Shown here one piece after another: positions 16,250 to 37,725 of a stretch of DNA of 57,510 nucleotides. The stretch spans positions 1-57,510 of the forward strand of contig CANKQY010000006.1 of the NCBI GenBank assembly GCA_947485745.1, in the 5' to 3' direction. Under the pieces are notes generated by a model. It saw only the letters and a list, made by a program, of their open reading frames with translations, ran no database searches and had not been told where the DNA came from. The stretch's first letter is position 1, and each line of letters starts with the position of its first letter. The DNA is from Bacteroidota bacterium. GTDB lineage: Bacteria > Bacteroidota > Bacteroidia > UKL13-3. A program made the position numbers and the translations under genes.

Positions 16250-16289
16250 CTACAAGGAGAAATCAATACCTACAAAAGGTTTTTATGCA

Positions 16290-17207: not shown

Positions 17208-17255
17208 TCTCACAATCAAAAATTTGTTTCTATTATTTAAACAAAAATACAATTA

Positions 17256-17984: not shown

Positions 17985-17995
17985 AGTATTAAAAT

Positions 17996-18268
17996 TTACC
18001 TTGAGTTATGCGCCAACAAGCCTTCTTTGGTTGCCAAATAGGAAAATGCACGCATGTTATCTGTATCATAAATAAAGCTGCGCCTATAATCACCAAATTC
18101 CTCCTCCCATTTCATCACAGAAACCATTTTTTTATGGATCAAAGTTTTAAGTGCATCTGCAACCACATTAGGGGGATAAGATACTTCCTCTAAAATTTTA
18201 TCGAATGGTTCAACAAAATACAGGCAGTTTAAAATATCAAACTCCAAATCATCTATTTCTGGTATCAT
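17996..18268 (-). CDS. Small hypothetical protein, possibly winged-helix; likely start at 18268
   Basis: ATGA overlap with the glycosyltransferase stop; EFDIL..LYF...F..I..E......V...LK.L..K..V and YLATKEG resemble a wHTH. Confidence 0.65.
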   Translation of the reverse strand: MIPEIDDLEFDILNCLYFVEPFDKILEEVSYPPNVVADALKTLIHKKMVSVMKWEEEFGDYRRSFIYDTDNMRAFSYLATKEGLLAHNSR

Positions 18269-19398
18269 TTTAATTCTCTCTCCTTCCAAGTATAAGTGTT
18301 TACATTAGCCCAAATACCAATAATAATAACATATAAAATATGAAATGGCTGAACCAATGGCATCAATAAAAGTAATTGTTTACGTTTAAAAAAGTGTAAG
18401 ATAGATCCCAATATCAATCCTTCTGCAAACATTTTTATCAAAAGTTGGGTCAAACCTACCTGCCAAAATCCTTCATAAAAAATGCTCATAATAACATTTA
18501 ATAACATGCTTAAATTAAAGAAATAAGCCCCAACCAAAATGGCAGTAATATGGCGTTCTTCATACTTTGTACTCTTTGAAACCCACCGACGCCTTTGTTG
18601 GGTTAATTGCTCCATACTTCCATTAGGTGAAGTATAAACAATTGCCCTTTCATCTTTTAAAAAATACACATCATCAGGATATTTTTTAAAAATCTTGTGC
18701 AACAAAAACTCATCATCGCCACTGGCAACATGTTCATTATTTAAATACCCCCCAACTTCATTAAAAGCATCCTTGGTAAAAATTAAATTGGCCGCACTAC
18801 ACATATTGGGATTCTTTAATTGTATAGCAGCTCCTCCAATGCCTACTAAACCGGCAAACTCCAAAGATTGAAACTTTTCAAACATGGTGGCTGCATGAAA
18901 GAAAACTGGCGCATATATCATTTTTACTGATTTCTGTTGAACAAAACTGTCCAGGCTACTTAACCATAAATTACCTCGCGTGCAATCTGCATCGGTAAGC
19001 ACTATCAAATCGAAATTGGCTATTGAAATACCCGCCGTTATTGCATTTTTTTTACCCGAAAAACCTGCCAATTCCGCGTCTATTAACCGAATATTTATGA
19101 TAGGATTGGAGGCAATTATCTCTTCTACAATTTTTGCTGTTTTATCATTTGAATGATCATTTATAACAATGATTTCAAAAAGCGAAGATGGGTAATTTTG
19201 TTGAATGATAGATCCTAAACAATTTTGGATTGAAGCTTCCTCGTTTCTCGCTGCAACTAAAATACTAAAAGCTATTTTTGGTTCAAACAAAACACTTGCT
19301 TTTTGTTTAGGGATGAGTAACCAACCCATATAATAAAAAATAATGAGGCAGGCATATCCTATTGCTAAAATATAACAAGAAATTTCCCAAATACTCAT
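18265..19398 (-). CDS. Membrane GT2 glycosyltransferase
   Basis: AARNEE, DHSND, TDAD, GDD, QRRRW motifs with N- and C-terminal TM helices. Confidence 0.93.
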   Translation of the reverse strand: MSIWEISCYILAIGYACLIIFYYMGWLLIPKQKASVLFEPKIAFSILVAARNEEASIQNCLGSIIQQNYPSSLFEIIVINDHSNDKTAKIVEEIIASNPIINIRLIDAELAGFSGKKNAITAGISIANFDLIVLTDADCTRGNLWLSSLDSFVQQKSVKMIYAPVFFHAATMFEKFQSLEFAGLVGIGGAAIQLKNPNMCSAANLIFTKDAFNEVGGYLNNEHVASGDDEFLLHKIFKKYPDDVYFLKDERAIVYTSPNGSMEQLTQQRRRWVSKSTKYEERHITAILVGAYFFNLSMLLNVIMSIFYEGFWQVGLTQLLIKMFAEGLILGSILHFFKRKQLLLLMPLVQPFHILYVIIIGIWANVNTYTWKERELK

Positions 19399-20339
19399 GA
19401 CCGAACCTTATAAATAAAATACATGCCCAATATAGCGGGAAACAACATGTTTACTATCCACAAACAATATGCAGCAAGTAAAATTCCTTCTTGGTTCATA
19501 CTATATAAACTAAAAAACATCAAAGCAGTTGCCCCGCGCAAGCCTATTTCTAATAGCAGAAATGAAGGCACTACCGACTGAACACAAAATGTGGCGATGA
19601 TACAAGCCAAAGCAGAAAAAAAATCAATATCAACTTTAAAAAACCGCAGCAACAAATAATATTGGGTTAAAAAAACAGTGTAACGCAGAAACGACAACAA
19701 TAATAATAAGCCCAATTCTTGGCGATTATAGGCACCAAAAACATTTACATATTGTTCAAACCTTACAAACCATGTAAGCTTTTTTATTTTGTTGTAAACT
19801 AAACTTAGATTTAAGTACACCAAAATCAACAGAAAAATAATTCCATAACCCAAAGGCAATAAATACCGGTAGCCCAAGAGTTGCTCACTAAAAAACGATA
19901 AAGAGAAAAGTCCAAAAAACAAGGTAATAATAACTTGAGCAGTATGACCAATTACAGCAACCAATGAACCTTTAATCTTATTTAGCACCTCCAAATGAAT
20001 CACTCTTCCTGCAAAATCTCCAATTTGATTTGGGGTAATAACACTCAGAGTAACGCCAGATAGGATGGCTTTTATGGCAGTTTTATAATCAATAGGTTCA
20101 TATTTTTGAATGAGCAATTTCCATTTCAATGCCTCTATACCCCAATTAAAAATGAGCAAAAATGAGGCTACAAGCAACCAATAAATTGACCCAATTTGCT
20201 GTTTGAGCTCAAAGCGTTGAAAAAGCGAATTGATATGATAAGCGTAAATTAATTTGTAAAAAATAAATACCGTTAGTACCAGTACTAAAACATTTTTCGC
20301 AATTTTAATTGCTTTTTGATATTGGGTTGTTTGAAACAA
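19395..20339 (-). CDS. Lysylphosphatidylglycerol-synthase-TM (flippase-like) membrane protein
   Basis: NWGIEALKW, TPNQIGDFAGR, EIGLRG, multi-TM; start codon uncertain. Confidence 0.85.
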   Translation of the reverse strand: MFQTTQYQKAIKIAKNVLVLVLTVFIFYKLIYAYHINSLFQRFELKQQIGSIYWLLVASFLLIFNWGIEALKWKLLIQKYEPIDYKTAIKAILSGVTLSVITPNQIGDFAGRVIHLEVLNKIKGSLVAVIGHTAQVIITLFFGLFSLSFFSEQLLGYRYLLPLGYGIIFLLILVYLNLSLVYNKIKKLTWFVRFEQYVNVFGAYNRQELGLLLLLSFLRYTVFLTQYYLLLRFFKVDIDFFSALACIIATFCVQSVVPSFLLLEIGLRGATALMFFSLYSMNQEGILLAAYCLWIVNMLFPAILGMYFIYKVRS

Positions 20340-20361
20340 AGGTTAGCATTAACTATGTTTG
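20330..20361 (+). promoter_or_regulatory. Sigma-A promoter for ruvC
   Basis: TTTG (20330-20333), 20-bp spacer, TATGTTTG (20354-20361). Confidence 0.7.
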
Positions 20362-20401
20362 ACAAAATAACGCATACATTCACCGTAAACCAAATGAGAT
20401 T

Positions 20402-21010
20402 TTGACAGAAAGCAAATCCATACAAGAAAGAATCATCCTTGGCATAGATCCAGGCACTACGGTTATGGGGTATGGCGTTATCCAAACCACAGGAAAAAAG
20501 GCAGTTGTACTTAGCTTGGGTGTTCTTAAACTGGATAAATATGATGACTATGCGCTAAAATTAAAAAAGATATTTGAGCGCACAGTTGGGCTAATTGATG
20601 AATACCACCCAGATGAACTAGCTATTGAGGCACCCTTTTATGGCAAAAATGTACAAAGTATGCTCAAATTAGGCAGGGCTCAAGGAGTAGCAATTGCAGC
20701 CGCTATGAGCAGAGAATTAGCTGTGGTGGAATATGCGCCTAAAAAAATAAAATTGGCCGTTACAGGTAATGGAAATGCTTCAAAAGACCAAGTTGCTGCC
20801 AGCTTAATGCAACAACTAAAATTTGAATACAATAATGAATACTCTGATGCAACAGATGGCTTAGCGGCAGCTTATTGCCATTTTATGCAAAAGAGTTTAA
20901 AGATACCAGCATTAGAAAGTAAAGGGAAAAGCAAAATTCCTAGCAAGAAAAAAAACTCCTCATGGGAAGCTTTTGTTACACAAAATCCAACTAAAATAAA
21001 GAAAAAATAG
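20402..21010 (+). CDS. ruvC: Holliday junction resolvase RuvC
   Basis: ILGIDPG, AIEAPF, LKLGRAQG, VTGNGNASKDQV, DATDGLA. Confidence 0.97.
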   Translation: MTESKSIQERIILGIDPGTTVMGYGVIQTTGKKAVVLSLGVLKLDKYDDYALKLKKIFERTVGLIDEYHPDELAIEAPFYGKNVQSMLKLGRAQGVAIAAAMSRELAVVEYAPKKIKLAVTGNGNASKDQVAASLMQQLKFEYNNEYSDATDGLAAAYCHFMQKSLKIPALESKGKSKIPSKKKNSSWEAFVTQNPTKIKKK

Positions 21011-21014
21011 CTCG

Positions 21015-21413
21015 TTATTTTGGCAATTGCAGCGCTATTTCATCGGCAATGGCTGCCATTTCTTCATTAGTAAACACCAACTTTGGGTTGGCAAAATTCA
21101 TCTCTTCCAAATTAGAAAATGGTATCAAATGAATGTGCGCATGCGGCACTTCTAATCCCATCACACACACGCCAACTCGTATACAAGGCACTGCTTTTTT
21201 AATACCCTCGGCAACTATCTTAGAAAATAAATGTAATCCAGCAAATTCGGTTTGATCCAAATCAAAAATGTAATCAACTTCCTTTTTAGGGATGACTAAA
21301 GTGTGCCCTTTGGTAAGTGGACGTATATCTAGAAAGGCTAAAAATTCAGAAGTTTCTGCAACTTTAAAACAAGGTATTTCTCCATTGATTATTTTGGTAA
21401 AAATACTTGGCAT
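21015..21413 (-). CDS. HIT family nucleotide hydrolase
   Basis: IFTKIINGEIP, GHTLVIPK, HAHIH triad. Confidence 0.95.
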   Translation of the reverse strand: MPSIFTKIINGEIPCFKVAETSEFLAFLDIRPLTKGHTLVIPKKEVDYIFDLDQTEFAGLHLFSKIVAEGIKKAVPCIRVGVCVMGLEVPHAHIHLIPFSNLEEMNFANPKLVFTNEEMAAIADEIALQLPK

Positions 21414-21416
21414 AAA

Positions 21417-21890
21417 TTATAAGGTTATTTCTAAAACTTCCAATTTGATTTGACCTGCAGGCACCATCACATCACAAAACTCCCCTACTTTTTTATTCAT
21501 CAAACCCAGTCCAATAGGCGATTTAAAGGATATCTTACCCGACTTAAGGTCTGCTTCTTTTTCATTAACCAAAGTGTACCAGATTTCTTTTTTTGAATTG
21601 TGATTGAGTACACGCACCCTTGTAAGCATCATTACCTTGCTAGTATTTAATTTGGTTTCATCAATGATTCTTGAAACAGAAACTAAATTTTCCATTTTTG
21701 AAATCTTCGCTTCCAATAAACCTTGATCTTCTTTGGCTGCATGGTATTCTGCATTTTCACTTAAATCTCCTTTATCTCTTGCATCGGCAATTTGCTTAGT
21801 TATAAAAGGACGTTGAACCTTTTTAAGATCGTTTAATTCGGCTTTCAATTTCTCTAAACCTTCTTTGGTTACAAAATTAATATCTGACAT
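21417..21890 (-). CDS. greA: Transcription elongation factor GreA
   Basis: GDLSENAEYHAAKE, ISFKSPIG. Confidence 0.97.
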   Translation of the reverse strand: MSDINFVTKEGLEKLKAELNDLKKVQRPFITKQIADARDKGDLSENAEYHAAKEDQGLLEAKISKMENLVSVSRIIDETKLNTSKVMMLTRVRVLNHNSKKEIWYTLVNEKEADLKSGKISFKSPIGLGLMNKKVGEFCDVMVPAGQIKLEVLEITL

Positions 21891-21917: not shown

Positions 21918-21954
21918 AAATAAAAGAAACGTTTAGCACGAGGCCAAACGTTCC
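21918..21954 (-). terminator. Hairpin plus U-tract between the PorV-like gene and greA
   Basis: Minus strand GGAACGTTTGGC-CTCGT-GCTAAACGTTTC followed by TTTTATT. Confidence 0.65.
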
Positions 21955-21980
21955 TTAATTAGTTTCAAATATAGTAATTT

Positions 21981-23111
21981 TTATCCCTTTTTACCTCCTA
22001 CGGTTAACCTTATTCCCAAGGTATGCATTCCATTAAAAATACGAGTTGGCGCATAAGAATAATCAATTGCCATTGCTGTACCATTTTTAGATATTGGCAA
22101 CTGAAAAGTTACACCAGTCCATAACCCATAAATGGGATCTAGGTATTGAGGATCACTCATGTTTTTGCTGAATGGTTGCGCATCATTGGTGTAGTTATAA
22201 GCAACTCTCAACATGGCCATTTCTTTGTAAGCGTATTCAAACCCTAAGCCATAAACATTAGATTGAAAGGCATTATAATTAAAGTTAAATGAACCTGTTA
22301 AACGGTGGAAATAAGTATCAGCTGATTTGTCTAAGCGCATATCATAACCTAAACCGATATTTACTAGAGTAGGTAAATTAAATTTATCGCCAGCGAAATA
22401 AGCTTTTCTATCTGCACCAGTAGCCGCATTAATAGAACGGAAAGAAAGTCCAGGACCAGAATACGTTAAATCTGGACCAATGTTTCTCATAGAAATACCT
22501 ATTCTAAAATCTTCCTTTTTAATCTTATTGCTTTGTTTCTTTGGGTTCAAAGAAGTTTGGTATTGAATACCAAAATCAAAGGCCACACCGGTGGCTTTTA
22601 CGTCTTGTAAACCCTCAGAAATAATTCTCAATAAAAATCCACCAGTAATACTATTTGAGAATTTTTTTGCATAAGCAGCACCAACGTTTAACACAACAGG
22701 ACTAAAAGTTGGCAAGGTGCCGTTAGGGTTATCAAAGGTTGTAATTGGAATACTTCCAAAATCCCATGAAGCAAAACCCAAACCAATAACTCCACCATCG
22801 CCATTTTCACCTAATACTTGGGAAAATCCAAAGTTATTTATGTTTACACCTGCGCCTTGCAAATAACTCATTCTTGAGAAAACCACCTCGGTTTTTTTAG
22901 AGTAAGCTAATCCTGCTATATTTAAATTAAAGGCTTCAATTCCTCTTACTGATGCAGTGTTTGTTCCTCCGTATCCAGAACTTCTGGCATAAGGATTAAC
23001 ATTTAATTGTGTTACCCCAGCTCCACCAGAACGCTCTGGATTGCCCGCGTAGGAATTACCTGCCAACGCTAGCATCCCAAGTAAACCAAATTTTATAATA
23101 TCTTTCTTCAT
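21981..23111 (-). CDS. PorV/PorQ-family outer-membrane beta-barrel
   Basis: Signal peptide, G...L.VNP.ARS.G.G, N.AGLA, YAKKFS..ITGG, A.G.AFD.G.QY, DYSY.......H..G.R. Confidence 0.8.
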   Translation of the reverse strand: MKKDIIKFGLLGMLALAGNSYAGNPERSGGAGVTQLNVNPYARSSGYGGTNTASVRGIEAFNLNIAGLAYSKKTEVVFSRMSYLQGAGVNINNFGFSQVLGENGDGGVIGLGFASWDFGSIPITTFDNPNGTLPTFSPVVLNVGAAYAKKFSNSITGGFLLRIISEGLQDVKATGVAFDFGIQYQTSLNPKKQSNKIKKEDFRIGISMRNIGPDLTYSGPGLSFRSINAATGADRKAYFAGDKFNLPTLVNIGLGYDMRLDKSADTYFHRLTGSFNFNYNAFQSNVYGLGFEYAYKEMAMLRVAYNYTNDAQPFSKNMSDPQYLDPIYGLWTGVTFQLPISKNGTAMAIDYSYAPTRIFNGMHTLGIRLTVGGKKG

Positions 23112-23146
23112 TTTAATATGATTTCAAAGTTTGAGTGAATATTAAT

Positions 23147-26100
23147 TTAGAATGTATCAAAATCGGCAGGACGAATAATCCCAAACCATTTAACAACTCT
23201 TTCTCCAATTCCGTCTGCATAAATATGAACCAAATAAACTCCACTTGCAATTGGCACTTTAGCATCATTTTTCAAATCCCAATCCAAATAGGTATTTACA
23301 TCATCATCCTTCTTAATTCTTCTAACCAAAAATCCACTTTGGGTATAGATTGAAATAACACATTTTTGGGGAAGGTTAATGATTTTAACGCGTTGATCCA
23401 ATTGATTACCTGGATCTTCATATCCAGCATACGCATAATAAGGATTTGGTGAAACAGCTACCATATCGAGGGCAGTTTTACCAGCCTGCTTCTCACCTAT
23501 AGTTGGCGAAATGCCCGTTGTAGAGAAAGAATATAATGGTAATCCTTTATTCAAAATAGTATCAGTGGCAGATAAATTTAAGCTAGCATAAGGACGTTTC
23601 ACGTTGATGTTAATCCTAACGTCGCAAGGGATACCTCCATTAGTTGTGTTATCACCTAAGAATGTTTTTGGCGAAACCAAAGTCATACTCACCCACATAG
23701 CCTGAGAATATAATTTACGCATATTCAAAGTAACACTCTGCACTGCCTCAATTTTGTTAAGCAAATCAGTATAGCTAACACCTTCATCATAACGAGGTCC
23801 GGCATATTGAATCGGACCTGTAGGGCTTGTACGGAAATCTTTAGAGCCCATTACGTAGATGTGGTGCTTACCTCCAAATATATAATTTAACCCACCTAAA
23901 GTTCCCGAAACCAATGTGCTAGTAGGATTCCAAATCATATCCGCTCCATTTTCTAACGGCAATGAAGAGTCTTCAGCAAACATGATGTTTAAGCGCTCTC
24001 CAGTTTCCTTATTAATTGCGTAACCAGGGAACCAACCTTTTCCAAAGCCATCGCCATCTGGTTTACCATCTTTGCCAACTGAAGGAGATTTTCTTCTTTG
24101 CATTTTTATAGCTCCACCAATATTTAATGATGTATTTTCTCCCGCTTCAATTACTACGCATCTCGACCAATATCTCTTATCTGGTGTAATGAATACAGAA
24201 ACACTTCTTAAGTCTGTTAAAGGATTGTCTGTTGAATATCCTCCAGTACCTGCAGACCAAGCTGGACCATAAGTTGGGGTTGGGGTTATAACCCTTGCGC
24301 ACAATGAATAAGGAGCCCAAGTTCCATCTATCACCTTGTTATATTGCCTTCTAGGATCAATTGGTGACTTATTGGCATCTGCAAAATCATGCTCGTAAGG
24401 ATTTGCAAAATTTGGTGTGCCTGTATTACCGGCTCTAATCCAATTAAAAGGCACCTGGGATCCAATCTCATCTGGAACTCCTACTAACCACCTATTATTC
24501 GGATTACTGAATTCAATGGATGATGAAATATAACCATTTGCATCATCCGTTTCATTTGTAGGATCACCAGGAGCTATAGGTTGATTAATATTAACGCTCA
24601 AGCCCATATCTTCAAATACTTGCTCGTTTGGTGTACCAATGGTTTTTTCACTAAATGCTACCTGAACACAATTTGCTGTACCAGAATACCTATACTTATT
24701 CGAATTTACAGTTACAAACTCATTTGCATATTGTACCGTGTCATATGGCGTTAAATCTGAAGCATCAATAATTTTTATTTTTACATAACCATCCAATAAC
24801 CTGTAGGATGAATTATTCTTAAAATCAGCTATGGTTGTTGGTTTAATATTTTCCAATATCCAAATAGTGCTGTCTTTTGTTAAGCTATCTCTTTTTACAG
24901 TTGATTTAGAATTATCAATTAATTTTAATTCAAAGTCTGCTTTTGGAACCTTAAAGGGATCTATTACCTTAATGATAACCGGACCCTTAGATTTCTCATA
25001 AGTAGGTGTTGGAACAAAATAAGGAGCTATTAAAGCTTTTTCAATTGTAGCTTGAGACAAAGTAATTGCGTTTCCACCATTTCCAATACCTTCTAATTTG
25101 GTAATTTCTGGTCCATCACCCCAGGCAGCGTTTAATACGGTTCCTTGCTGATGAGGAGTAGCTTTGTGTGGTATTCCTGTCCAAACTGCAATTGCCGTTC
25201 CGTCTATCATTTTACGACCTGCCAAATATTGAGTAGCTTCATCTACGCAATTGGTAGCACTGGCATAAGCAACTAGGTAGAAATAATAACTCTGGAAGTT
25301 AACCAATGATTGATCCGATAATTTTGAAAATACGTCCTTGCTAATTTTAAAACTATGAATAATGCCTTTATCACTGCCATTAACCATAATCTTTTTAACA
25401 CTGCCAAGGTCCGCATCGTTTACAATATTTACAATCTTTGAATTTCCATCCTGAACATCACACTGAGCAATTTCAACTGCCTCGTCTAAATTATATAAAT
25501 TACTTGGCGCAGAGTTTTTCTTTAATTGAAATATTTGATACCCTTGAAATTTATATTTAGTTTTACTTGAACACAAACCTGCAGATGAATCCGAATAATT
25601 CTCGGTAACATTGTAATTTACTATGTTAAGTATAATTTCTTGATCCAATTCAACTATTTCTAACTTTGGAACCCTAGGTCCATCAACTATATTAAAGTTA
25701 TTTTTGTATAGCACATAAGCTTTATCAGATGCTTCTTTTAACAAATTGAATGATCCGGTTGCACCTCCGGTGGTACCCCTTGCCCATACAACAGCTACAG
25801 TTACTTGATTTTTTGATCCTGGTAACAAACTAAATGAACCTGCAGTTTGTAAAAACCTTCTATCCCCAGGGTTATTTCCAGCGATTCTTTCTGTCCAATC
25901 TGCTCTACCAGATGGGTCTGTTTTTCCAGGAAACATAAAGCTAGCAGTATCAGAACCTCCTCTACCATTGCCTCCATAAGAAATATTTAAACCATCTTTC
26001 CATCTTCCATTCAAGTAATTCCAGTAATGCTCTGGTCTACTTGGATTTCCTGTTACCGAAAAGTCGTTGTTATAATACACAAACTTGGTTAGGCCAATTT

Positions 26101-27142
26101 CTGAGGTATCATTTCCAACAATTCTTTGTGGTCCTTCAAAAAAATTCACACCAACACTAGGTGGGTTCAAACCGTAACCCAAAATACCCTCATCATTGTC
26201 ATCACCATTATAACATATACCCAAATTTCTTTTCACATCACACTCCACATAATCATCCGAATAATTACCCAAGTCGGCATCTACCCATTGACCAAACACA
26301 CAGCTATCAATTGTTTCGGAACTACGGTTAAAAATAGTAGTTCTATAAAATGTCATGTTATTAATTTCATCGTTGGTAGCGTAAGCAAAACTTTGGGTAT
26401 GTAATTCCAATCCAATAGGCAAACCCTCAGTTTCTGAGTGAATATTTCCTTTGTCATTATAAATGGTAAATAACATCATATCTGGGATATTAGTTATTAC
26501 GTTTTGGTCAAAGGTTGGAAAGTCTCCATCTGTAGTTTGATAATCTCCATCGTTATTACTATCATAAAAAGGAGCTAGGAATGCTGCTTCACCGAGCACC
26601 TTATCGCCATTTCCAGGCCAAGTCTTAATTGCCTCAATTGGATTTGCTTTGTCATCATTACTTTGAAACTCTTCAATTTCAGCTAAGGTTACTTTCCAAA
26701 TTTTATCATAATACTTGCACCTGTCGGCAGAAATAGAAGCATTTGCAATTTGTAAAGCACCTGGGTAATAATCACTACCACTTTGGCGATAAGTTTGTGC
26801 CGCAATCTTCAAGTTACCTTGAGTAATTCCACCAATCCACAATGCACCAGAAAATAGCGAGTGCTTTTTAGTTTGGCCAGTTTCTACTTTTGGAATTTCG
26901 TAACGTGCATTTTGCAAATTCCACCACATATCACCACCGTTTAAAATAACGGTACGTACATTGTTTAAATCCAAATCTTTTTGTTGGGTAGCTTGAGCAC
27001 ATCCAGCTCCTTTTTTTAATAAGGTTGATTTAGCAGTTTTTTGCAAACCAATATTCTCCTCTGCAAAACCTTGAAAGCCTATTAAAACTAAGCTTATTGC
27101 AAGAAAAGTGTATTTCAAAAAATAATTATTTTTCTTTTTCAT
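23147..27142 (-). CDS. Large secreted protein with a T9SS-like (FlgD-Ig-like) C-terminal domain
   Basis: Signal peptide; LD.NNVR....N.G; GALWIGG; DADLG...DD; PGDRR; C-terminal PNPY...I.NLP..C.I.IYT.SG.LVR...WDL.N....ASGVY. Confidence 0.8.
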   Translation of the reverse strand: MKKKNNYFLKYTFLAISLVLIGFQGFAEENIGLQKTAKSTLLKKGAGCAQATQQKDLDLNNVRTVILNGGDMWWNLQNARYEIPKVETGQTKKHSLFSGALWIGGITQGNLKIAAQTYRQSGSDYYPGALQIANASISADRCKYYDKIWKVTLAEIEEFQSNDDKANPIEAIKTWPGNGDKVLGEAAFLAPFYDSNNDGDYQTTDGDFPTFDQNVITNIPDMMLFTIYNDKGNIHSETEGLPIGLELHTQSFAYATNDEINNMTFYRTTIFNRSSETIDSCVFGQWVDADLGNYSDDYVECDVKRNLGICYNGDDNDEGILGYGLNPPSVGVNFFEGPQRIVGNDTSEIGLTKFVYYNNDFSVTGNPSRPEHYWNYLNGRWKDGLNISYGGNGRGGSDTASFMFPGKTDPSGRADWTERIAGNNPGDRRFLQTAGSFSLLPGSKNQVTVAVVWARGTTGGATGSFNLLKEASDKAYVLYKNNFNIVDGPRVPKLEIVELDQEIILNIVNYNVTENYSDSSAGLCSSKTKYKFQGYQIFQLKKNSAPSNLYNLDEAVEIAQCDVQDGNSKIVNIVNDADLGSVKKIMVNGSDKGIIHSFKISKDVFSKLSDQSLVNFQSYYFYLVAYASATNCVDEATQYLAGRKMIDGTAIAVWTGIPHKATPHQQGTVLNAAWGDGPEITKLEGIGNGGNAITLSQATIEKALIAPYFVPTPTYEKSKGPVIIKVIDPFKVPKADFELKLIDNSKSTVKRDSLTKDSTIWILENIKPTTIADFKNNSSYRLLDGYVKIKIIDASDLTPYDTVQYANEFVTVNSNKYRYSGTANCVQVAFSEKTIGTPNEQVFEDMGLSVNINQPIAPGDPTNETDDANGYISSSIEFSNPNNRWLVGVPDEIGSQVPFNWIRAGNTGTPNFANPYEHDFADANKSPIDPRRQYNKVIDGTWAPYSLCARVITPTPTYGPAWSAGTGGYSTDNPLTDLRSVSVFITPDKRYWSRCVVIEAGENTSLNIGGAIKMQRRKSPSVGKDGKPDGDGFGKGWFPGYAINKETGERLNIMFAEDSSLPLENGADMIWNPTSTLVSGTLGGLNYIFGGKHHIYVMGSKDFRTSPTGPIQYAGPRYDEGVSYTDLLNKIEAVQSVTLNMRKLYSQAMWVSMTLVSPKTFLGDNTTNGGIPCDVRININVKRPYASLNLSATDTILNKGLPLYSFSTTGISPTIGEKQAGKTALDMVAVSPNPYYAYAGYEDPGNQLDQRVKIINLPQKCVISIYTQSGFLVRRIKKDDDVNTYLDWDLKNDAKVPIASGVYLVHIYADGIGERVVKWFGIIRPADFDTF

Positions 27143-27175
27143 TGTCGTTTTCTTTAATAAAGTAATTAAATTAAT

Positions 27176-30100
27176 CTAGAAATATAAGGCCATTCCTAAA
27201 CGTACAATTCTTGGTGGAGCAAACCTATCTGGATTGATCATTCTCAAATTGTATAGGTCAATGTATGATTGCTGATTGGTTGCAACTTCTTTTTGTTCCT
27301 GTGAAGCCGGGGAGGCTAAGAAACCATCGTTGTATGCAGAACCAGTATACCTATATACCGAAGTAACATTAGCTGTATTTAATAAGTTTTGAACCATTAT
27401 GAATGCACGTAATCTATACATGGTGGTGCTTCCATCAATTTTCTTTTTCTTGAAAATAAAGTTTTTGTCAACGTTTAAATCTAAATTAAACTGTGCTGGC
27501 AAATTTGCTCCGTTTGGCGTTCCTTTAATCGGGCTTCTTACCACAACACCAGATTGAACACCTCCAGGAGTTGGGTTCAAATCTTGGGTGTAAGGGCGAC
27601 CAGAATAAGCAGTAAATGCTAAATTGAAACCGGCATTTTCAAAAATCTTTTTACCGTTTACAATCGGGCCATTATAATCTTTTCCTTCTTTGTAATGGTA
27701 ATCAAAAATAGTTTTTAAGGTATGGCGTGTGTCAAAATCCATTGGTGTTAGCGTACGTAATGACGGCAAACCAACTGAGATTAATGCCGCACTGGTATTT
27801 GGATTGGAACCAGTACCATCAGCAAACATCAACTGATAATTAGCTGTAATAGTAACATTACCTAAATCTCTTACTGTATATTCTAAACCAATACTTTTTA
27901 CAGTTGAAAAGTCTAAATTACCATAGGTGGTATAATCATTTGGCCACGACTGCACATATTGATACAATTGCGTCATATTTCTAATTTCACTGTAAGAAGC
28001 AATAATTGCCAAAGCTGCATCTTGACCAATTTGCTGACGGAAACCAATTTCATAATCCGTTTTGGTTTGCATTTTCAAATCAGGATTTGCAATGGCAGAA
28101 CCTTGGCGATTTTGCAAAAAGAAATAGTCATCAATTTGTCCAACGTTTGCATTAGGTCTTTGAGCCAAGATATCATAAGTACCAAAAAATTGCGAGGTAG
28201 TTGATATTGGGAATGAGAACCAAATACGTGGCAATAATTTAAGGTCGGGCTTGTAATCTGTAAAAGAGGCCGAAGTTGGTAAATTAGGATTTTTAGGATC
28301 AACTAAAATTGGTGTATTCCTATTTGTTTTTGCTTCTGATTTAATTTGAGATGGGTCGGTTATAGGGTTGCCATTTTTATCATACCATTTGGTTCCATCG
28401 CGGTAACCATAAATCTTTGATCCTGATAACCCAGCAGTTTGTTGATTTGCATCTTTATCTATATAAGGAATAAATTTATCTCCAATGGTAGTTGGTATAT
28501 TTGAAGGATCGATACCCATAGTTCCGGCTCTTACCTCCCCAACTGTATATACTGGCACAACTGAATAAGGATCTTTCAATACAGGTTGGTTTGCATCAAA
28601 ACGCTCCAAACGAACACCCACCCTTACAATTAAATCTTTGAAAACAAACTTATCCTGAACCCAAGCCGCAAAATAAGTTGGCTGATAAGCCGGCAAAGCA
28701 CGCTTAGTTGGATCATTCAAGAAATCATCAATAGTAGAACGCTTCCTTTGAACTTTACCCAAATGGTTGTATCCAGAATAACTTACAAATGAACTACCAT
28801 TGTTTAACAATTCACCTGCATTAAACATATCCAAAGAATAATCTGTAGGCTTGTAAGAGTTCACATCTAAAAAAGAATATTGGTCAATTGGTTTACCATA
28901 GGCATCTACCGCACCTTGGGCCATTAATTTGTCACGTAAATTCTTGTCGAAATTTGTTTGATCATTTATTACTATTTTTCTTTTAAAATTTACGGTATCA
29001 GAAAATACACCATTCTCATCAAATTTTAACTCATAATTACCACTATCCAATCCGGAAAACTGGCGATTGACATTTAAACGCATTAAACTCCATAGGCCAG
29101 TAGCGCCTAAACCATAATTTCTTCTAAATTGTTGTTCAAGGTTTAAGCCAACCTGAAATTCATGTTTTGCTTTAGGATTGCTTTTTGGTGCAACACTAAA
29201 CTCACTTTGAACATACAAATTGAATGTTTCTGATAAACTTTTGCTATACCCAGCTTGTTGCTGCCCAACATTACCCCACATATTTGAGTATATTCCATTG
29301 GGTGCATCACCATTAATTAATCCTCCAACCTGACGAACAGCGCCAGGATTTCTTAATGCATTTGAGCCAAAATAATCGTAAACAGCTTTGGTGTAATTAC
29401 CGCGTGTTTGATTTGCATTATCGGCTTGGTCATAAGTATAAAGGGTATCTCGGTATCCAACATGACGGTAATAGTCATTTAAATAAAGTGGATTGTTTTT
29501 ATCGCCTCCTATATAAAAGGTATCTTGAGCTTGATTAAAACCTTTAATAACACGGCTATATACAGGGGCAGTATAAGTTGTAAACTTTCCGATGTAACCA
29601 TAATCAAAAAAATCTCTTTGGAAATCTGCATCCATGGATTCGCCAAAGCCTCTTTCATAAGATAACCTTACGGTATAATAGGCATTACTGATATTTGATG
29701 CTTTTTTATTTGCTTCTTCATCCTTTTTATCAGACTTAAATGTTTGTGTAAATTGAAAATAGGTTCTTGCAGTATATCCTCTTGAAAAACCGTTTTTCTC
29801 AGGTCCAAGCAATGAATGAAAAGTATTATTTCCCCTACCTTGATTGTAATTACCATAATATCCCATGCGCACATTGATATTATTGGTTGGTTGAAAATTG
29901 AAGTTACCATTTATGTCCACATTGGTGCTATAAACATTCTGGCGAACGTTGATTTTTTGAAGGTCGTTGGCAGTAATGTATTCAGCTGCTGGAAACAATG
30001 TTCCCAATGCTCCTGGCACCAAAGGCTTTTCCTTAATTTCCTTTAATTTATCATCATTTACTTTGTATAAATCTATTACAGAAATACTTTTTCCATAGGT

Positions 30101-30961
30101 AAGTGAGCCAGATAATAGAAAACCTAATAATACTTTCTCCTCGTTGCCTCTACCTTTATTAATGGTTTTAATAGGACCAGAAACATATCCTTGAAATTGG
30201 TTGTATTGGCTATTGTCTAAATAGCCTGTAAAAGGTGAGGCGCTGGTAAATTCAAAGCCTCTAGAAAAGTTTTTAGTTGGAGCTTTGGTTGTGATACTAA
30301 TGGCACCACCCACAAAGTCGCCATATTGTGCTGGCGTACCTCCTGTGATTACTTGAATTTGATCAATGGCATTGGCAGGAATATTGGTAGCACCAGCTTG
30401 AACGCGAACCCCATCAATATAATAGGCTGTACCATCGGCACGCGCACCTCTAAAGTTAGGAGTTGCACCATTTCTACCTTCAACACCTAAAGATAAACCA
30501 GCAATACTATTCACACTCCTGGTTCCCAGTGCAAGTATTTCCTTATTGGTAACAACGTTTCCTTTAACCCCACCTGGATCAACCAACTGCTTTTTGAAGG
30601 TAACTACATATTCCTTTAAAGTAGTACCATCAGTTGATGGTTCCATGCTAAAGTTTACAAAACGATCCTCCTCTGGCGCAACATTAATTCCTTTAATAAC
30701 AGAATTGCCGTAACCAACAAAAGAAGCATACAGATCATATTCTCCAGGTTGTAAGGTTTTAATTACATAACCTCCCTCATCATCTGTAAGCGCGGTAGCC
30801 TTAGTTACACCATTTAATTTAATGGTAATACTCACATAATCCATGGCTTTCTTGGTTTTGGCATCTTTAATTGTACCACGTATGGTACCCATGCCCGATT
30901 GAGCGTGTAGCACAAATTGAAAGCCAAAAAGAACAGCTAATAGTATGTATATTTTCTTCAT
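27176..30961 (-). CDS. TonB-dependent receptor with N-terminal carboxypeptidase-regulatory-like domain (not SusC type)
   Basis: GTIRGTIKD..T; plug motifs FRGAR....YYIDGV and IQVITGG.PAQYG...GG.I.ITTK; QDKF, G.R.ERFD; terminal Phe in PPRIVRLGMALYF. Confidence 0.9.
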   Translation of the reverse strand: MKKIYILLAVLFGFQFVLHAQSGMGTIRGTIKDAKTKKAMDYVSITIKLNGVTKATALTDDEGGYVIKTLQPGEYDLYASFVGYGNSVIKGINVAPEEDRFVNFSMEPSTDGTTLKEYVVTFKKQLVDPGGVKGNVVTNKEILALGTRSVNSIAGLSLGVEGRNGATPNFRGARADGTAYYIDGVRVQAGATNIPANAIDQIQVITGGTPAQYGDFVGGAISITTKAPTKNFSRGFEFTSASPFTGYLDNSQYNQFQGYVSGPIKTINKGRGNEEKVLLGFLLSGSLTYGKSISVIDLYKVNDDKLKEIKEKPLVPGALGTLFPAAEYITANDLQKINVRQNVYSTNVDINGNFNFQPTNNINVRMGYYGNYNQGRGNNTFHSLLGPEKNGFSRGYTARTYFQFTQTFKSDKKDEEANKKASNISNAYYTVRLSYERGFGESMDADFQRDFFDYGYIGKFTTYTAPVYSRVIKGFNQAQDTFYIGGDKNNPLYLNDYYRHVGYRDTLYTYDQADNANQTRGNYTKAVYDYFGSNALRNPGAVRQVGGLINGDAPNGIYSNMWGNVGQQQAGYSKSLSETFNLYVQSEFSVAPKSNPKAKHEFQVGLNLEQQFRRNYGLGATGLWSLMRLNVNRQFSGLDSGNYELKFDENGVFSDTVNFKRKIVINDQTNFDKNLRDKLMAQGAVDAYGKPIDQYSFLDVNSYKPTDYSLDMFNAGELLNNGSSFVSYSGYNHLGKVQRKRSTIDDFLNDPTKRALPAYQPTYFAAWVQDKFVFKDLIVRVGVRLERFDANQPVLKDPYSVVPVYTVGEVRAGTMGIDPSNIPTTIGDKFIPYIDKDANQQTAGLSGSKIYGYRDGTKWYDKNGNPITDPSQIKSEAKTNRNTPILVDPKNPNLPTSASFTDYKPDLKLLPRIWFSFPISTTSQFFGTYDILAQRPNANVGQIDDYFFLQNRQGSAIANPDLKMQTKTDYEIGFRQQIGQDAALAIIASYSEIRNMTQLYQYVQSWPNDYTTYGNLDFSTVKSIGLEYTVRDLGNVTITANYQLMFADGTGSNPNTSAALISVGLPSLRTLTPMDFDTRHTLKTIFDYHYKEGKDYNGPIVNGKKIFENAGFNLAFTAYSGRPYTQDLNPTPGGVQSGVVVRSPIKGTPNGANLPAQFNLDLNVDKNFIFKKKKIDGSTTMYRLRAFIMVQNLLNTANVTSVYRYTGSAYNDGFLASPASQEQKEVATNQQSYIDLYNLRMINPDRFAPPRIVRLGMALYF

Positions 30962-31057: not shown

Positions 31058-32029
31058 TTATTCACCTTTTTCAATAAAAGTCAGCACTTTATCTAACAAA
31101 ATTCTAGAAATTTTAAAATAACTTTCTTTTGTCCATCCACCAATATGAGGGGTTAAAAGCACATTTTCTCCGCTTACCAAATAGGCAAATACCTCTTTTT
31201 CCTCCTCATTTAGGCTCTCCAAATCTTCATTTTCTAAAACATCCAATGCACATCCAAGCACTTTTTTTCTTTGCAATCCTGCCATTAAATGAATTGTTTT
31301 AACCACCTTTCCCCTACTTAAATTAAGCAAATAAAATGGCTTCTTAAAACGCTCAATTTTGGTTTGCTCCAAATAGTAAATGGTTTCTTTGGTAAGTGGC
31401 ACATGAAACGACAAAATATCTGCCTCTTCATATATTTCTTCCCAAGTACTTTCTTTTACAAAATCATTCCCAAAATTCTTCAAATAAGGATCATGTGCCA
31501 AAACTTTAACACCTAGTCCTGAGAGTTTTTTAGCAAAAGCACTACCAGTATTTCCAAAGCCAATAATGGCCACAGTTTTACCCGCAAGCTCTGTGCCTCT
31601 ATTCTCCTCTCTTAACCAAACCTTATTTTTAACCTGGTTGTTTGCCCTACCTAAAAAATTAAGCATCATGAGCAATAACCCTAGCGCATGCTCCCCTACT
31701 GCATCTGCATTGGCCTCACCTGCATTGATGCATTTTATCCCCTTCGTTTGAGCATAATCTAAATCTATGTTGTCTAAACCTGCTCCTGCTCTAGCAATTA
31801 ATTTTAGGTTCGAACCAACATTAATTAATGCGGCATCTACTTGAGTTTTGGCTCTTATAACAAGAATATCCTGTTCTGGCAAATGCGCTAATATATCGGC
31901 CCTAGTTGCGTTTGGTAAATAAAGAACGTGGTGTCCAACTTCACTCAACTCTTGTGGCAACAATTCATGAACATCGTCTACAATTAAGATATTCAAGCCC
32001 CTAACTGCGCTGCTTAAGTTGTCGTTCAT
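31058..32029 (-). CDS. D-isomer-specific 2-hydroxyacid dehydrogenase (SerA-like, no ACT domain)
   Basis: RAGAGLDNID, IIGFGNTG, HVPLT, N.SRG, LDV.E.E, TPHIGG. Confidence 0.92.
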   Translation of the reverse strand: MNDNLSSAVRGLNILIVDDVHELLPQELSEVGHHVLYLPNATRADILAHLPEQDILVIRAKTQVDAALINVGSNLKLIARAGAGLDNIDLDYAQTKGIKCINAGEANADAVGEHALGLLLMMLNFLGRANNQVKNKVWLREENRGTELAGKTVAIIGFGNTGSAFAKKLSGLGVKVLAHDPYLKNFGNDFVKESTWEEIYEEADILSFHVPLTKETIYYLEQTKIERFKKPFYLLNLSRGKVVKTIHLMAGLQRKKVLGCALDVLENEDLESLNEEEKEVFAYLVSGENVLLTPHIGGWTKESYFKISRILLDKVLTFIEKGE

Positions 32030-32068
32030 TTTAATAGTAATATTTTTTTTACAAAAGGTTGCACCACT

Positions 32069-33430
32069 TTATAAAGTTGTATATAACATTCTCCCCACCG
32101 AGAAATAAATAACTATTCCAAGAAGGTCGTTGCTGGTTGTTATAAACGGACCAGTAGCTATGGCAGGGTCTATTTTTATTTGGTTCAAAAACATAGGTAT
32201 AAAGGTGCCAAATATGGATGCAAAAATTATAACCGTTATCAACGCAATACTAACTGTAATAGCTAATTCATAGGAATGGTAAAAGGCCAAATTATAGGCC
32301 AATATTAAGCTAGAACAAATAATTCCGTTGATCAATGCCACCCGTATTTCTTTTAAAATTTTCTGTCCAATATTTTTTGTACCCAAAGTATCATTTGCCA
32401 AACCTTGCACCACAATTGCCGAAGATTGCACCCCAACATTGCCGCCCATTGCCGCTATCAAAGGAATAAAAAAAGCCATCTCCGGATGTATCATAATTTG
32501 ATTTTCATATACACCCAAAATTCTTGAGCTTGCTATCCCGCCTAATAAGCCAATCAACAACCAAGGCAAACGCGCCCTTGACAATACCCATACTTTATCT
32601 GTGGCGTCCACATCCGCAGTAATACCACTCATTAATTGATAGTCTTCGTCGGCCTCTTCTTTAATTAAATCTACCACATCATCCACTGTAATTCTTCCAA
32701 CCAAACGCCCCAATGGATCAACCACCGGTAGCACCACCAAATCATACTTTTTAGTGGTATTGGCCACCTCAATTATTTTGGTAGAGGTAGATACAGAAAT
32801 AACTGTTTTATTATATACATCGGCTAAATGCGCTTTTGGTTCGGCCAGAATTAAATTTTTTAAAGTTATGATCCCAACCAAACGCTCCATTTCATCTATT
32901 ACATAAACCACATAAATGCTATCAACATTCTCGGCTTGCGTTCTAATTTCTTCAATGCACTGTTTAACCGTCCAATTTAAATTAGCCTTCACCAATTCTA
33001 CAGCCATTAAGCTTCCTGCTGTTTCTTCTTCATAGCTAATTAGGCTCAACAAGCTACTGGCATACTCAATATCTTGTAACTGCCCAATTACTTCTTCCTT
33101 AACCGAATTAGGAAAATGATTCAGCACATAAGCCGCATCATCACTGTCCATGTTTTCTAAAAACTCATTGGCAATTTCGAAGGGACTATAAGTTGATAAA
33201 AATGATTCACGCGTTTGATCATCCATTTCCACCAAAACCTTTACAATGGTAATTTTATCCAAAGTATTCATCACAATCCTTGCTTCGTCATTTTCTAAAC
33301 GATCAATAACCATTGCAATATCCTGTGGATACATATTTTCTAATTGCGCACGCAAATTTTCAGTTTCATTCTGGCTGAACCAATTTCGAAACTGTTTTAT
33401 TAAGGCATTGTCAACTTGTAGCTTTTCCAT
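32069..33430 (-). CDS. mgtE: Magnesium transporter MgtE
   Basis: MgtE_N, CBS pair, RARLPWL, AMGGNVGVQS, DPAIATGPFITT.ND. Confidence 0.97.
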   Translation of the reverse strand: MEKLQVDNALIKQFRNWFSQNETENLRAQLENMYPQDIAMVIDRLENDEARIVMNTLDKITIVKVLVEMDDQTRESFLSTYSPFEIANEFLENMDSDDAAYVLNHFPNSVKEEVIGQLQDIEYASSLLSLISYEEETAGSLMAVELVKANLNWTVKQCIEEIRTQAENVDSIYVVYVIDEMERLVGIITLKNLILAEPKAHLADVYNKTVISVSTSTKIIEVANTTKKYDLVVLPVVDPLGRLVGRITVDDVVDLIKEEADEDYQLMSGITADVDATDKVWVLSRARLPWLLIGLLGGIASSRILGVYENQIMIHPEMAFFIPLIAAMGGNVGVQSSAIVVQGLANDTLGTKNIGQKILKEIRVALINGIICSSLILAYNLAFYHSYELAITVSIALITVIIFASIFGTFIPMFLNQIKIDPAIATGPFITTSNDLLGIVIYFSVGRMLYTTL

Positions 33431-34206
33431 TATTTTTTACTAGCTATTAAATTAGTGAGTTCAATAAATTTGGCTATACTTAATTCTTCCGCACGTTTGC
33501 TGGCAAATTCTCCTAACTCCTCATCGTTCAGGCCAAAAGTTGATAGGGCATTGCGCAGTTTCTTTCTTCTTTGATTGAATGCTGTTTTCACAACCGTTCT
33601 CAACATTTTTTCATCACAACCTAATTCGCCTTCTTTTCTGGTTAACCTAATTACCCCCGATTTAACTTTTGGCGGAGGGGTAAATACATGCTCATGCACG
33701 GTAAACAAATATTCAACATGATAAAATGCTTGGGTTATAACCGACATAATTCCATATTCCTTACCACCATGCGTGGCGCCAATTCTTTCGGCTACTTCCT
33801 TTTGAAACATGCCCACCATAAAAGGTATCACACTTCGGTGTTCCAAAATATGAAATACAATTTGAGAAGAAATATTATAAGGAAAATTTCCAATAATGGC
33901 TATAGATTCTGGGTACCTTTGGGTAAAATCAATGGCCAAAAAGTCTTCATTCAACAAGCGCTGACTCAATTGTGGGTAGGTAGCCATCAAATAAGTAACC
34001 GATTCGGAATCTACCTCAGTGGCCCAAGTTACCAGACCTTTTTCTGCCAATAAAAATTGGGTAAGCACGCCCATACCCGGCCCCACTTCCAATACTTGTC
34101 CGCTAGGATACACATCTACCAAGGCCTGCACAATATTGCCAGCTATGTTTTGGTCGTTTAAAAAATGTTGTCCTAGGTGCTTCTTGGCCCTTACGGTTTG
34201 TGTCAT
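33430..34206 (-). CDS. rsmA: 16S rRNA adenine dimethyltransferase
   Basis: KKHLGQHFL, LEVGPGMG, GNFPYNISS, MFQKEVAER, F.PPPKV.S. Confidence 0.98.
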   Translation of the reverse strand: MTQTVRAKKHLGQHFLNDQNIAGNIVQALVDVYPSGQVLEVGPGMGVLTQFLLAEKGLVTWATEVDSESVTYLMATYPQLSQRLLNEDFLAIDFTQRYPESIAIIGNFPYNISSQIVFHILEHRSVIPFMVGMFQKEVAERIGATHGGKEYGIMSVITQAFYHVEYLFTVHEHVFTPPPKVKSGVIRLTRKEGELGCDEKMLRTVVKTAFNQRRKKLRNALSTFGLNDEELGEFASKRAEELSIAKFIELTNLIASKK

Positions 34207-34364
34207 ACTTGCAAATAGAATGTATTTGGTGGAGAAATGAAAAAAAACAATCCTGAGATTTTCTTTTTTATAAAATAACAGGCCTTATTTTGGCAACATC
34301 AAATACAGCAAATTAGGAAATAATTATTAAAAATTACCTCATTATTAGCCTTTTTCATCATTTC

Positions 34365-34412
34365 TTAATTCTGAATTCTTTCCTATTGTTCGGAATAAGA
34401 ATTCAGAATTAA
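34365..34412. repeat. 16-bp perfect inverted repeat built from AATTCTG units
   Basis: TTAATTCTGAATTCTT ... AAGAATTCAGAATTAA. Confidence 0.8.
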
Positions 34413-34471
34413 TACCTTAATATTGCCAACAAGAATTTATACAACCCTAAATTCATTACCAATATACATAC

Positions 34472-35911: not shown

Positions 35912-35936
35912 ATTGCTTTAAAATAATAAAACTCAC

Positions 35937-37004: not shown

Positions 37005-37090
37005 AAAATAACTATTTCTAGGTAAATTAAGGCATTTGGAGGTGCAATTCTTAATTTAGTACATTGATTTTCAAGTAATTTTCAAAAAAG

Positions 37091-37122: not shown

Positions 37123-37134
37123 CGAGCTATAATA

Positions 37135-37704: not shown

Positions 37705-37725
37705 AAAAATAAGGAGATATATAAA

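Follow-up and report, generated by a model that had tools for sequence, protein, structure and literature searches.

A conserved gene triad of Bacteroidota encodes a divergent TonB-dependent transporter, a putative type IX secretion substrate and a distinct PorV-family barrel

Two kinds of described surface assembly come closest to the locus studied here, a triad of adjacent genes for a transporter (P0001), a large secreted protein (P0002) and an outer-membrane barrel (P0003), which lies on contig CANKQY010000006.1 of the Bacteroidota assembly GCA_947485745.1 (lineage UKL13-3). The stretch analysed, positions 1 to 57,510 of the forward strand of that contig, is called the window below. In the first kind of assembly, represented by PorZ-PorQ and PorU-PorV of Porphyromonas gingivalis and Flavobacterium johnsoniae, a surface protein exported through type IX secretion (the T9SS) keeps its C-terminal domain (CTD) and sits on a 14-strand barrel of the PorV/PorQ family; in the passages of PMC10202324 on these complexes, CTD retention is a trait of two proteins, PorZ and PorU, whose CTDs stay on PorQ and PorV. 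In the second kind, that of SusC/SusD (RagA/RagB) and other lipoprotein lids, a transporter with a carboxypeptidase-regulatory-like domain stands beside a large, potentially substrate-binding surface protein. The lids of Bacteroides TonB transporters are all lipoproteins according to the relevant part of Price et al. 2023 (bioRxiv 10.1101/2023.03.17.533168), and the main text of that preprint contains 0 mentions of T9SS or PorV. Sequence comparisons and structure models suggest that the triad joins these two designs, a CTD-retaining protein on a PorV-family barrel and a TonB transporter with an adjacent surface partner. By the tests that define them, it is a member of neither.

Compared with PorZ-PorQ and PorU-PorV, the triad has a barrel of a separate clade, a co-encoded TonB transporter and a CTD with an insertion and a 12-residue tail; P0002 would share with PorZ and PorU the retention of the CTD. 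The bodies of PorZ (propellers) and PorU (sortase) are unrelated to that of P0002, and a PorU- or PorZ-like body is ruled out since outside the CTD the protein matches neither NF052228 nor NF033707. A SusC/RagA-SusD pair is ruled out as well, because P0001 has no match to TIGR04056 and no SusD neighbour; its partner is instead predicted to be a non-lipoprotein T9SS substrate with a barrel of its own. Three further systems share some features with the locus. In SprB-SprF, as presented in the corresponding passages of PMC10202324, cargo with a type B CTD and its cognate PorP/SprF barrel lie side by side, and the triad differs from it by a type-A-like CTD, a PorV/PorQ-family barrel and the presence of a transporter in the unit. 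PorF (PG0534) of P. gingivalis is, in the sections of PMC5445135 and PMC12704123 that deal with it, a TonB-receptor-type barrel tied to the T9SS; it measures about 92 kDa, those sections describe no cargo or barrel beside its gene, and it is likened to P0001 by description only. In the Bacteroidota barrel assembly machinery (BAM), the FadL/PorV-like 14-strand barrel BamG holds the large surface protein BamH by its extracellular loops, in the account given in part of PMC12578637; BamH is a surface lipoprotein and a part of BAM and, unlike the triad, comes with neither a CTD nor a transporter. The full-text literature that we searched, whose scope did not extend to subscription journals and supplementary tables, contains no description of the triad, and these other sources may hold proteomic or fitness data on its orthologues.

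An earlier reading of the window, made from the sequence only, had proposed three co-oriented genes separated by short gaps and closed by a terminator-like hairpin, each with a non-lipoprotein signal peptide, and no SusD, hydrolase or regulator next to them. Open reading frame (ORF) calls and a hairpin search agree with this layout to the base (Table 1), with intergenic gaps of 33 nt between the P0001 and P0002 genes (27143-27175) and 35 nt between the P0002 and P0003 genes (23112-23146). The N-termini of the three proteins, read by eye, resemble Sec type-I signal peptides and lack a lipobox cysteine. The hairpin begins 25 nt past the stop codon of the P0003 gene. Hairpin-type sites are no commoner in the region than in shuffled sequence (3 vs 6.6 ± 3.1), so that only the position and the stem length of the closing hairpin carry weight. 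The annotation of the flanks places no SusD, glycoside hydrolase or regulator adjacent to the triad, and a Pfam scan that took in 19 flanking ORFs (12650-21890 and 31058-41856) along with P0002 and P0003 gave no SusD family.

Table 1. Features of the triad, with positions in the window.
Feature	Position	Strand	Remarks
P0001, TonB-dependent transporter, not SusC-type	27176..30961	(-)	1261 aa; signal peptide aa 1-20; C-terminal F
Carboxypeptidase-regulatory-like domain, P0001 aa 26-107	30641..30886	(-)	PF13620 55.4 bits (cut-off 32.3); PF13715 42.2 bits
TonB-box-like stretch LKEYVVTF, P0001 aa 115-122	30596..30619	(-)	Read by eye
Plug domain, P0001 aa 135-219	30305..30559	(-)	PF07715 39.6 bits (cut-off 23.9)
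P0002, secreted protein without Pfam family	23147..27142	(-)	1331 aa; signal peptide aa 1-27
N-domain, P0002 aa 48-486	25685..27001	(-)	Galactose-mutarotase-like beta-supersandwich (AlphaFold2 model, fold search)
Beta-rich middle region, P0002 aa 487-760	24863..25684	(-)	Ig/fn3-like look, by DSSP of model
Insertion of ~75 aa, P0002 aa ~755-830	24653..24880	(-)	Close kin only; alignment gap fraction 0.4-0.97
C-domain, P0002 aa 840-1215	23498..24625	(-)	pLDDT mostly >90
CTD, P0002 aa 1218-1331	23150..23491	(-)	Divergent type-A T9SS CTD, nearest PorZ/PorU CTDs
Tail of 12 residues, P0002 aa 1320-1331	23150..23185	(-)	Past canonical CTD end; family pattern ...KWFG-x-x-RP-x-D-x-D-x-F
P0003, PorV/PorQ-family outer-membrane barrel	21981..23111	(-)	376 aa; NF033709 118.4 bits (cut-off 90)
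Terminator-like hairpin	21956..21924	(-)	14-bp stem, 5 G-C pairs, 5-nt loop, then T-run

The order of the three genes is conserved. Relatives of P0002 occur in 38 of 41 related genomes, and the order transporter-P0002-barrel was found in 11 of the 15 loci around those matches, the rest being one orphan copy and three partial paralogues. A wider survey covered the best 80 of 541 P0002 relatives in a species-representative genome collection, all from uncultured Bacteroidia; where at least 400 nt were available on both sides (67 loci), both neighbours were present in 63 cases and neither in 4. The triad also stands in order in all 12 loci from other classes and all 3 from further Bacteroidia families, these 15 having been chosen as best-scoring and being biased to good matches. 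The recurrence of the same gene order in related loci shows that the arrangement is not due to chance, and bears out the expectation that the three genes are kept together across genomes. The triads of other classes are smaller, with transporters of 941-1144 aa, barrels of 340-376 aa and middle proteins of 1007-1192 aa that lack most of the C-domain (profile positions ~690-1140). For one of these middle proteins, NCBI annotates relatives in Rhodothermales and Rhodothermia metagenome-assembled genomes (MAGs) as T9SS type A sorting domain proteins.

Some of the loci carry further genes after the barrel. One or two tandem P0002-like paralogues follow it in L053 (11713-15121), L066 (11837-15343) and L158 (13663-19001), and the CTD of one L158 copy ends without the tail. 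In three loci of other classes (L150 13163-15331, L151 7867-10092, L153 2989-5226), the gene after the barrel encodes a protein of 722-745 aa with TPR repeats and a weak, sub-threshold similarity to multihaem cytochromes.

The sequence-only reading had the middle protein end in a T9SS CTD, which profile and fold comparisons uphold. The host genome (2.75 Mb, 139 contigs, 96.5% complete) encodes SprA, PorU, PorV, PorZ and PorQ, together with 109 type-A CTDs over the cut-off. When a profile of the triad tails was aligned by hhalign with one built from 40 of these 109 canonical CTDs, the match was strong (93.8%, E 1.7e-7), and in the alignment the triad CTDs have roughly ten inserted residues behind the PNP motif and run 12 residues past the canonical end. 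The CTD of P0002 matches NF052228, the PorZ C-terminus, with an E-value of 7e-6. Its modelled fold is closest to the CTD of PorZ (VIA Z 11.9, rmsd 2.3, 92 aligned residues, 27% identity) and then to that of PorU (Z 9.9), followed by a match at Z 8.7 and the CTD of the cargo mirolase (8.4); other cargo CTDs lie at 7.2-7.8 (NucA 7.8, RgpB 7.2), and Foldseek gave the same order. Judged by these profiles and models, the C-terminus of P0002 is homologous to type-A T9SS CTDs. At locus L035, a full-length P0002 paralogue ends in a canonical Por_Secre_tail CTD that lacks the tail, and neither transporter nor barrel is adjacent; this natural control points in the same direction as the docking of CTD and barrel described below.

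The triad CTD profile also reaches two other proteins of the host genome, PorU (18.7 bits) and a 712-aa protein on contig C25 (41 bits; C25 1756-3894 on the minus strand, L162 1759-3894). The latter lacks the tail. It is ruled out as PorZ, having no Pfam or NCBIfam family, and the real PorZ lies on C29. Proteins of about 700-725 aa in most of the surveyed genomes of the same genus weakly match the same CTD region. The C25 protein could be a second client of a PorV-family barrel.

The assignment of P0003 to the PorV family by the sequence-only reading is confirmed by the family model (Table 1), and the protein is distinct from the genome's canonical PorV. It stays far below the equivalog cut-offs of PorV (NF033710, 52 bits against 250) and PorQ (NF033711, 50 bits against 220), and the PorV2 model NF052325 is not listed for it at E<=0.1. 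Among solved structures, the P0003 family profile (A3) matches PorV of F. johnsoniae (6h3i_F) with an E-value of 3.7e-17. The host genome has five barrels of the PorV/PorQ family, namely PorV on C16, PorQ on C72, PorV2 on C60, a further type on C27 and P0003. The canonical PorV (479 bits) adjoins a 1284-aa PorU on C16, a contig other than that of the triad. We built a maximum likelihood tree of 37 barrels, comprising the family members of this and five other genomes and 8 of the 60 triad barrels of A3, and leaving out one duplicate piece (L141). The triad barrels form one clade (support 100/99), apart from PorV (100/98), PorQ (100/100), PorV2 (99/99) and the C27 type (99/98); two long-branch rows from one genome were left unplaced. 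By its scores and its place in the tree, P0003 represents a fifth orthologous group, one that is not the working PorV and probably not a FadL-type outlier. The canonical PorV is ruled out by the equivalog score, the true PorV beside porU and the separate clade, and PorQ and PorV2 by their equivalog scores and the copies on C72 and C60.

That P0003 is a FadL-type small-molecule channel or a working PorV, linked to P0002 by accident, is disfavoured, and we regard it as extremely improbable. PorV is itself a FadL homologue, in the wording of the part of PMC12578637 on this family, and in the PDB search TbuX and TodX are matched faintly by A3 (E 0.013-0.048). Such an accident is opposed by the canonical PorV beside porU elsewhere in the genome, by the score of P0003 on the PorV-family model and its separate clade, by the lack of any Pfam hit at E<=0.1, and hence of any FadL-type family, and by the presence of the barrel after P0002 in 63 of the 67 surveyed loci.

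Two other barrels of the genome have neighbours of their own. The C27 barrel (6764-7765, plus strand, 333 aa; L117) matches the family model only, lies after thiL and overlaps the start of the gene for a 422-aa NHL-repeat protein (7753-9021, plus strand); its clade is kept in three of the five other genomes examined, and the two proteins may be another undescribed barrel-partner pair. The PorV2 barrel (NF052325, 431 bits; C60 2068-3798, plus strand, L119) is preceded by a 219-aa ORF without a family.

The proposal that the middle protein is captured by its own PorV paralogue is favoured by the structure models, in which the CTD of P0002 docks on P0003 with a median ipSAE of 0.85 (runs 0.80, 0.86 and 0.85), compared with 0.00 for the best of three controls. 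Of 80 solved complexes 58 reach this mark, as do 2 of 110 mismatched pairs. The three runs share at least 83% of their contacts, and the pLDDT of the partner is at least 77. The predicted interface comprises, on P0003, the N-terminal stretch and conserved loops (e.g. residues 116-140) and, on P0002, residues 1227-1326, including the invariant K1318-W1319-F1320 and residues 1322-1326 of the tail. In these models P0003 and the CTD look like a PorV-CTD pair, a likeness that does not by itself demonstrate binding in the cell.

We propose that the three genes form one operon and build a cell-surface uptake unit. The three proteins would be exported across the inner membrane by Sec, and P0002 would then cross the outer membrane by the T9SS. 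Its PorZ/PorU-like CTD would not be removed, and CTD and tail would stay permanently docked on P0003. We consider this part of the chain, from Sec export to permanent docking, to be probable. The supersandwich N-domain of the tethered P0002, whose fold is nearly confined to carbohydrate-active enzymes, would then bind, and perhaps process, a glycan-type ligand that P0001 would import. The whole chain, with P0002 linked to the transporter in ligand capture and import, we hold with less confidence, at somewhat under an even chance, because the link to the transporter draws on conserved gene order alone. We infer that the CTD is retained, that P0002 touches or cooperates with the transporter and that the ligand is of a glycan type. 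In the sequence-only reading as a whole, the barrel family, the CTD, the docking and the conservation of the triad have stood, while a place of P0002 on or beside the transporter as a lid is conjecture and a housekeeping role is no more than suggested by the deep synteny.

P0001 is taken, from its sequence, to be a working but divergent TonB-dependent transporter. Besides the regulatory and plug domains it has, between them, a stretch that resembles a TonB box; the family consensus at this place is L-x-E-V-x-V-V (alignment A4). In the PDB, profile A4 finds the plugs of CirA (E 1e-11) and of PfeA, and the single sequence of P0001 retrieves nothing from solved structures at E<=0.01. No barrel family of Pfam and no NCBIfam family, hence no TIGR04056 (SusC/RagA), matches P0001 at E<=0.1. 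Of 14 orthologues from other triads, 7 exceed the cut-off of the TonB-receptor barrel PF00593 and 3 that of the Oar-type barrel PF25183. The host genome has other TonB transporters too, such as one of 979 aa on C12. The PF25183 matches, together with an Oar-like layout of carboxypeptidase-regulatory domain and plug, raise the question of whether P0001 moves P0002 outward in the manner of Oar of Myxococcus xanthus; PMC6434023 provides the precedent, Oar being a TonB-dependent transporter needed to secrete the protease PopC. We find this very unlikely here. P0002 has a T9SS CTD and the genome a complete T9SS, the dedicated PorV-family barrel and the predicted docking already account for export and anchoring, and a protein of 1331 aa is far above the size expected to pass a plug-gated channel.

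P0002 is strongly conserved. The protein has more than 3108 homologues, which NCBI names 'hypothetical' or 'T9SS type A sorting domain-containing', and neither its sequence nor its family profile finds a relative among solved structures (both at E<=1). A search of the ESM Atlas returned only unnamed look-alike clusters and no model of P0002. We modelled it with AlphaFold2 in two parts, each from a 72-row alignment (aa 28-760, pLDDT 84.9, pTM 0.79; aa 826-1331, pLDDT 88.5, pTM 0.76). Both models are mainly beta with short helices, except for one 21-residue helix that closes the N-domain. The N-domain has the fold of the supersandwich that precedes the catalytic domain in several carbohydrate-active enzymes. 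Its best match is dextran dextrinase 157-466 (VIA Z 18.1, rmsd 3.2, 252 aligned residues). Cellodextrin phosphorylase, glucoamylase and glucodextranase (GH94 and GH15) match with their N-domains at Z 17-18, GH116 and GH65 enzymes with theirs at 16-17, and aldose epimerases follow at 11-12. A wide fold search independent of Foldseek produced the same list (Z 18.0). Its rows 1-22 were all carbohydrate-active enzymes, as were most of the 50, the exceptions being two YidC entries, a subunit of the NDH complex, a TPR protein and one further chain (rank 25). The assignment concerns the fold only, with 8-11% identity to the matches and no matching sequence family. A fold does not show a function, and we treat the supersandwich as a lead towards carbohydrate binding and nothing beyond that. 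No glycoside hydrolase family of Pfam matches P0002, and it is ruled out as a GH15, GH65, GH94 or GH116 enzyme, since the (alpha/alpha)6 domain of these enzymes is absent.

The family alignment of the N-domain contains two conserved Cys pairs and many invariant D, N, H, R and E residues, among them H235, E246, D288, D290, D297, D317 and D427-R429, and the family comprises 9752 cluster representatives at E<=1e-3. The domain is found in other T9SS cargo too, behind propellers and ahead of PKD or SprB repeats with a canonical CTD; this distribution marks it as a mobile module. The minus-strand gene fragment at the end of contig C109 (1-1803; L121) has a weak Reg_prop propeller match followed by the first half of a P0002-type N-domain (148 bits), which indicates that the domain is mobile within the host genome too. 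One orthologue has a weak fn3 match, below the cut-off, at the middle region, and in a Pfam search of 21 relatives the triad proteins gave only sub-threshold FlgD_ig/fn3 matches, with one Big_9 in one long orthologue. An internal duplication is ruled out by the hhalign comparison of N-domain and C-domain (6.8% probability).

Several observations weigh against the reading of the triad as an uptake unit held together by the CTD. The CTD of P0002 remains below the TIGR04183 cut-off of 23 (13.2 bits in the protein scan and 17.5 in the genome search, the weakest among the 113 matches listed for the genome), it has no PF18962 match, and the triad CTD profile fails to reach the PorZ of the same genome at E<=1e-3. 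PorV-CTD complexes have already been solved, and the docking may have passed partly by likeness to them. The periplasmic domain of YidC matches the N-domain with Z 12, and the AlphaFold2 models lack the (alpha/alpha)6 catalytic domain that follows the sandwich in the matched enzymes. No fold match emerged for the C-domain, for which the Foldseek and VIA lists were filled by the CTD of the same model. The four orphan copies of P0002 among the 67 loci keep the special CTD without an adjacent transporter or barrel, and locus L115 keeps it with the barrel absent. Within Bacteroidia, the length of the transporter shows no co-variation with that of the middle protein (rho -0.11, 68 loci), and the overall rho of 0.28 comes from a single between-class difference. 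Conserved, single-copy and set between core genes, the unit does not resemble the phylum's variable nutrient loci. Two further points of this kind concern co-occurrence with the T9SS and the RNA libraries, and are given with those data below.

Some of the same observations fit a partition of functions, in which P0002 and P0003 are a surface adhesin or enzyme and its anchor and the transporter merely shares their operon. Orphan copies occur without a neighbouring transporter, the N-domain is mobile and is joined in other T9SS cargo to propellers, to PKD or SprB repeats and to a canonical CTD, and transporter and P0002 vary in length independently within Bacteroidia. Yet over the whole span from Bacteroidia to Rhodothermia-type relatives the three genes stay in order and tens of bases apart, which is hard to explain without a functional tie among them. 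The orphan copies, moreover, keep the special CTD, and two of them come from MAGs that also have a full triad. We judge such a separation of functions to be unlikely.

The sequence-only reading had named co-occurrence with sprA as a point to check. In an even draw of 301 genomes across the phylum, P0002-like proteins (E<=1e-10, paralogues included) were present in 154 of 237 SprA-positive and 0 of 64 SprA-negative genomes, a contrast that is confounded by kinship, as 63 of the 64 negatives belong to one family. Several complete genomes of the draw carry the unit. In most of its SprA-bearing Bacteroidia families, however, the search did not find it, several having nearly or wholly no match (0/22, 1/16 and 0/8 genomes), which indicates that it is dispensable for the T9SS as such.

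These numbers bear on the idea that the triad is a housekeeping machine of the envelope or of the T9SS, serving the cell's own surface (surface glycan, material linked to lipopolysaccharide (LPS), attachment of cargo) rather than feeding, in the manner of PorF. It would account for the deep conservation of a mostly single-copy unit in several classes, its fixed place beside a serA-like dehydrogenase and among core genes, and the resemblance of the P0002 CTD to those of PorZ and PorU, which are parts of the attachment complex. It also has a precedent, as PorF/PG0534 is a TonB-receptor-type barrel that the consulted sections of PMC5445135 and PMC12704123 describe as needed for normal gingipain secretion. 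We nevertheless give this idea a low probability, for the T9SS works without the triad in the families just mentioned, and the host genome already has PorU, PorV, PorZ and PorQ.

The placement among core genes, which had been noted from the sequence, agrees with the annotation of the flanks. Downstream of the triad lie greA, a HIT-family gene, ruvC, recO and lipid or glycosyl-transferase genes, and upstream a 2-hydroxyacid dehydrogenase gene, mgtE, a gene for rRNA adenine dimethylase, pdxA, plsX, fabH and accBC. The dehydrogenase gene (31058-32029, minus strand) is directly upstream of the transporter gene; this is one of seven checked loci, from several classes, in which it was seen there, the others being L159 (17341-18291), L160 (16973-17908), L149 (15865-17454), L150 (3190-4809), L152 (14640-16259) and L158 (492-2081). 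In Bacteroidia the enzyme is of a short form (311-325 aa); in other classes it is a phosphoglycerate dehydrogenase of full length that includes an ACT domain (529-539 aa). This adjacency reflects either deeply conserved synteny or a functional tie. The window also contains two ordinary T9SS cargo genes, one at 12650-14518 (plus strand; 622 aa, four PKD domains and a canonical Por_Secre_tail) and one at 42035-43453 (minus strand; a 472-aa ORF with a TIGR04183 match of 28.4 bits at its end).

Public sequencing data give weak support for expression of the unit in nature. Of the 20 public runs that contain the stretch, six are RNA libraries, and every labelled one is a freshwater or lake metagenome. 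RNA-library contigs from four runs cover the unit in part and bridge both gene junctions. More precisely, in two runs a 3.5-kb contig of about 93% identity reaches from greA through P0003 into the 3' end of P0002, the junction of P0002 and P0001 is bridged by other contigs, and a near-identical run has short contigs over P0002 and P0001. In none of the four runs do contigs cover 28902-30947 (5' two thirds of the P0001 gene), which is uninformative. As announced above, the nature of these data counts against our reading, since they are contigs, mostly of a relative about 93% identical, from which neither DNA carry-over nor a single transcript can be decided.

Many uncultured Bacteroidia of freshwater and marine origin carry the unit, and so do Rhodothermia-type relatives. 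It did not turn up in most of the draw's families to which the model organisms belong, and this could explain why it has gone unstudied. We suggest tentatively, and with less assurance than for the uptake chain itself, that T9SS-bearing Bacteroidota possess an old, undescribed transporter design with a T9SS-delivered partner, anchored free of lipid by a specialised CTD in a dedicated fifth barrel clade. This design would run parallel to SusC/SusD and possibly be its forerunner, and the tail would steer the CTD, like an address, to its private barrel and shield it from the PorU sortase. The N-domain, for its part, is a large unannotated family for which a fold can now be given and a link to carbohydrates put to the test. 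If the proposed reading is true, the T9SS would assemble fixed protein-on-barrel complexes at the surface beyond its attachment complex, and not only cargo that is released or linked to LPS. The TonB-dependent transporters of Bacteroidota would gain a class of non-lipoprotein partners, and the PorV family would include cargo-specific docks that can be recognised from sequence.

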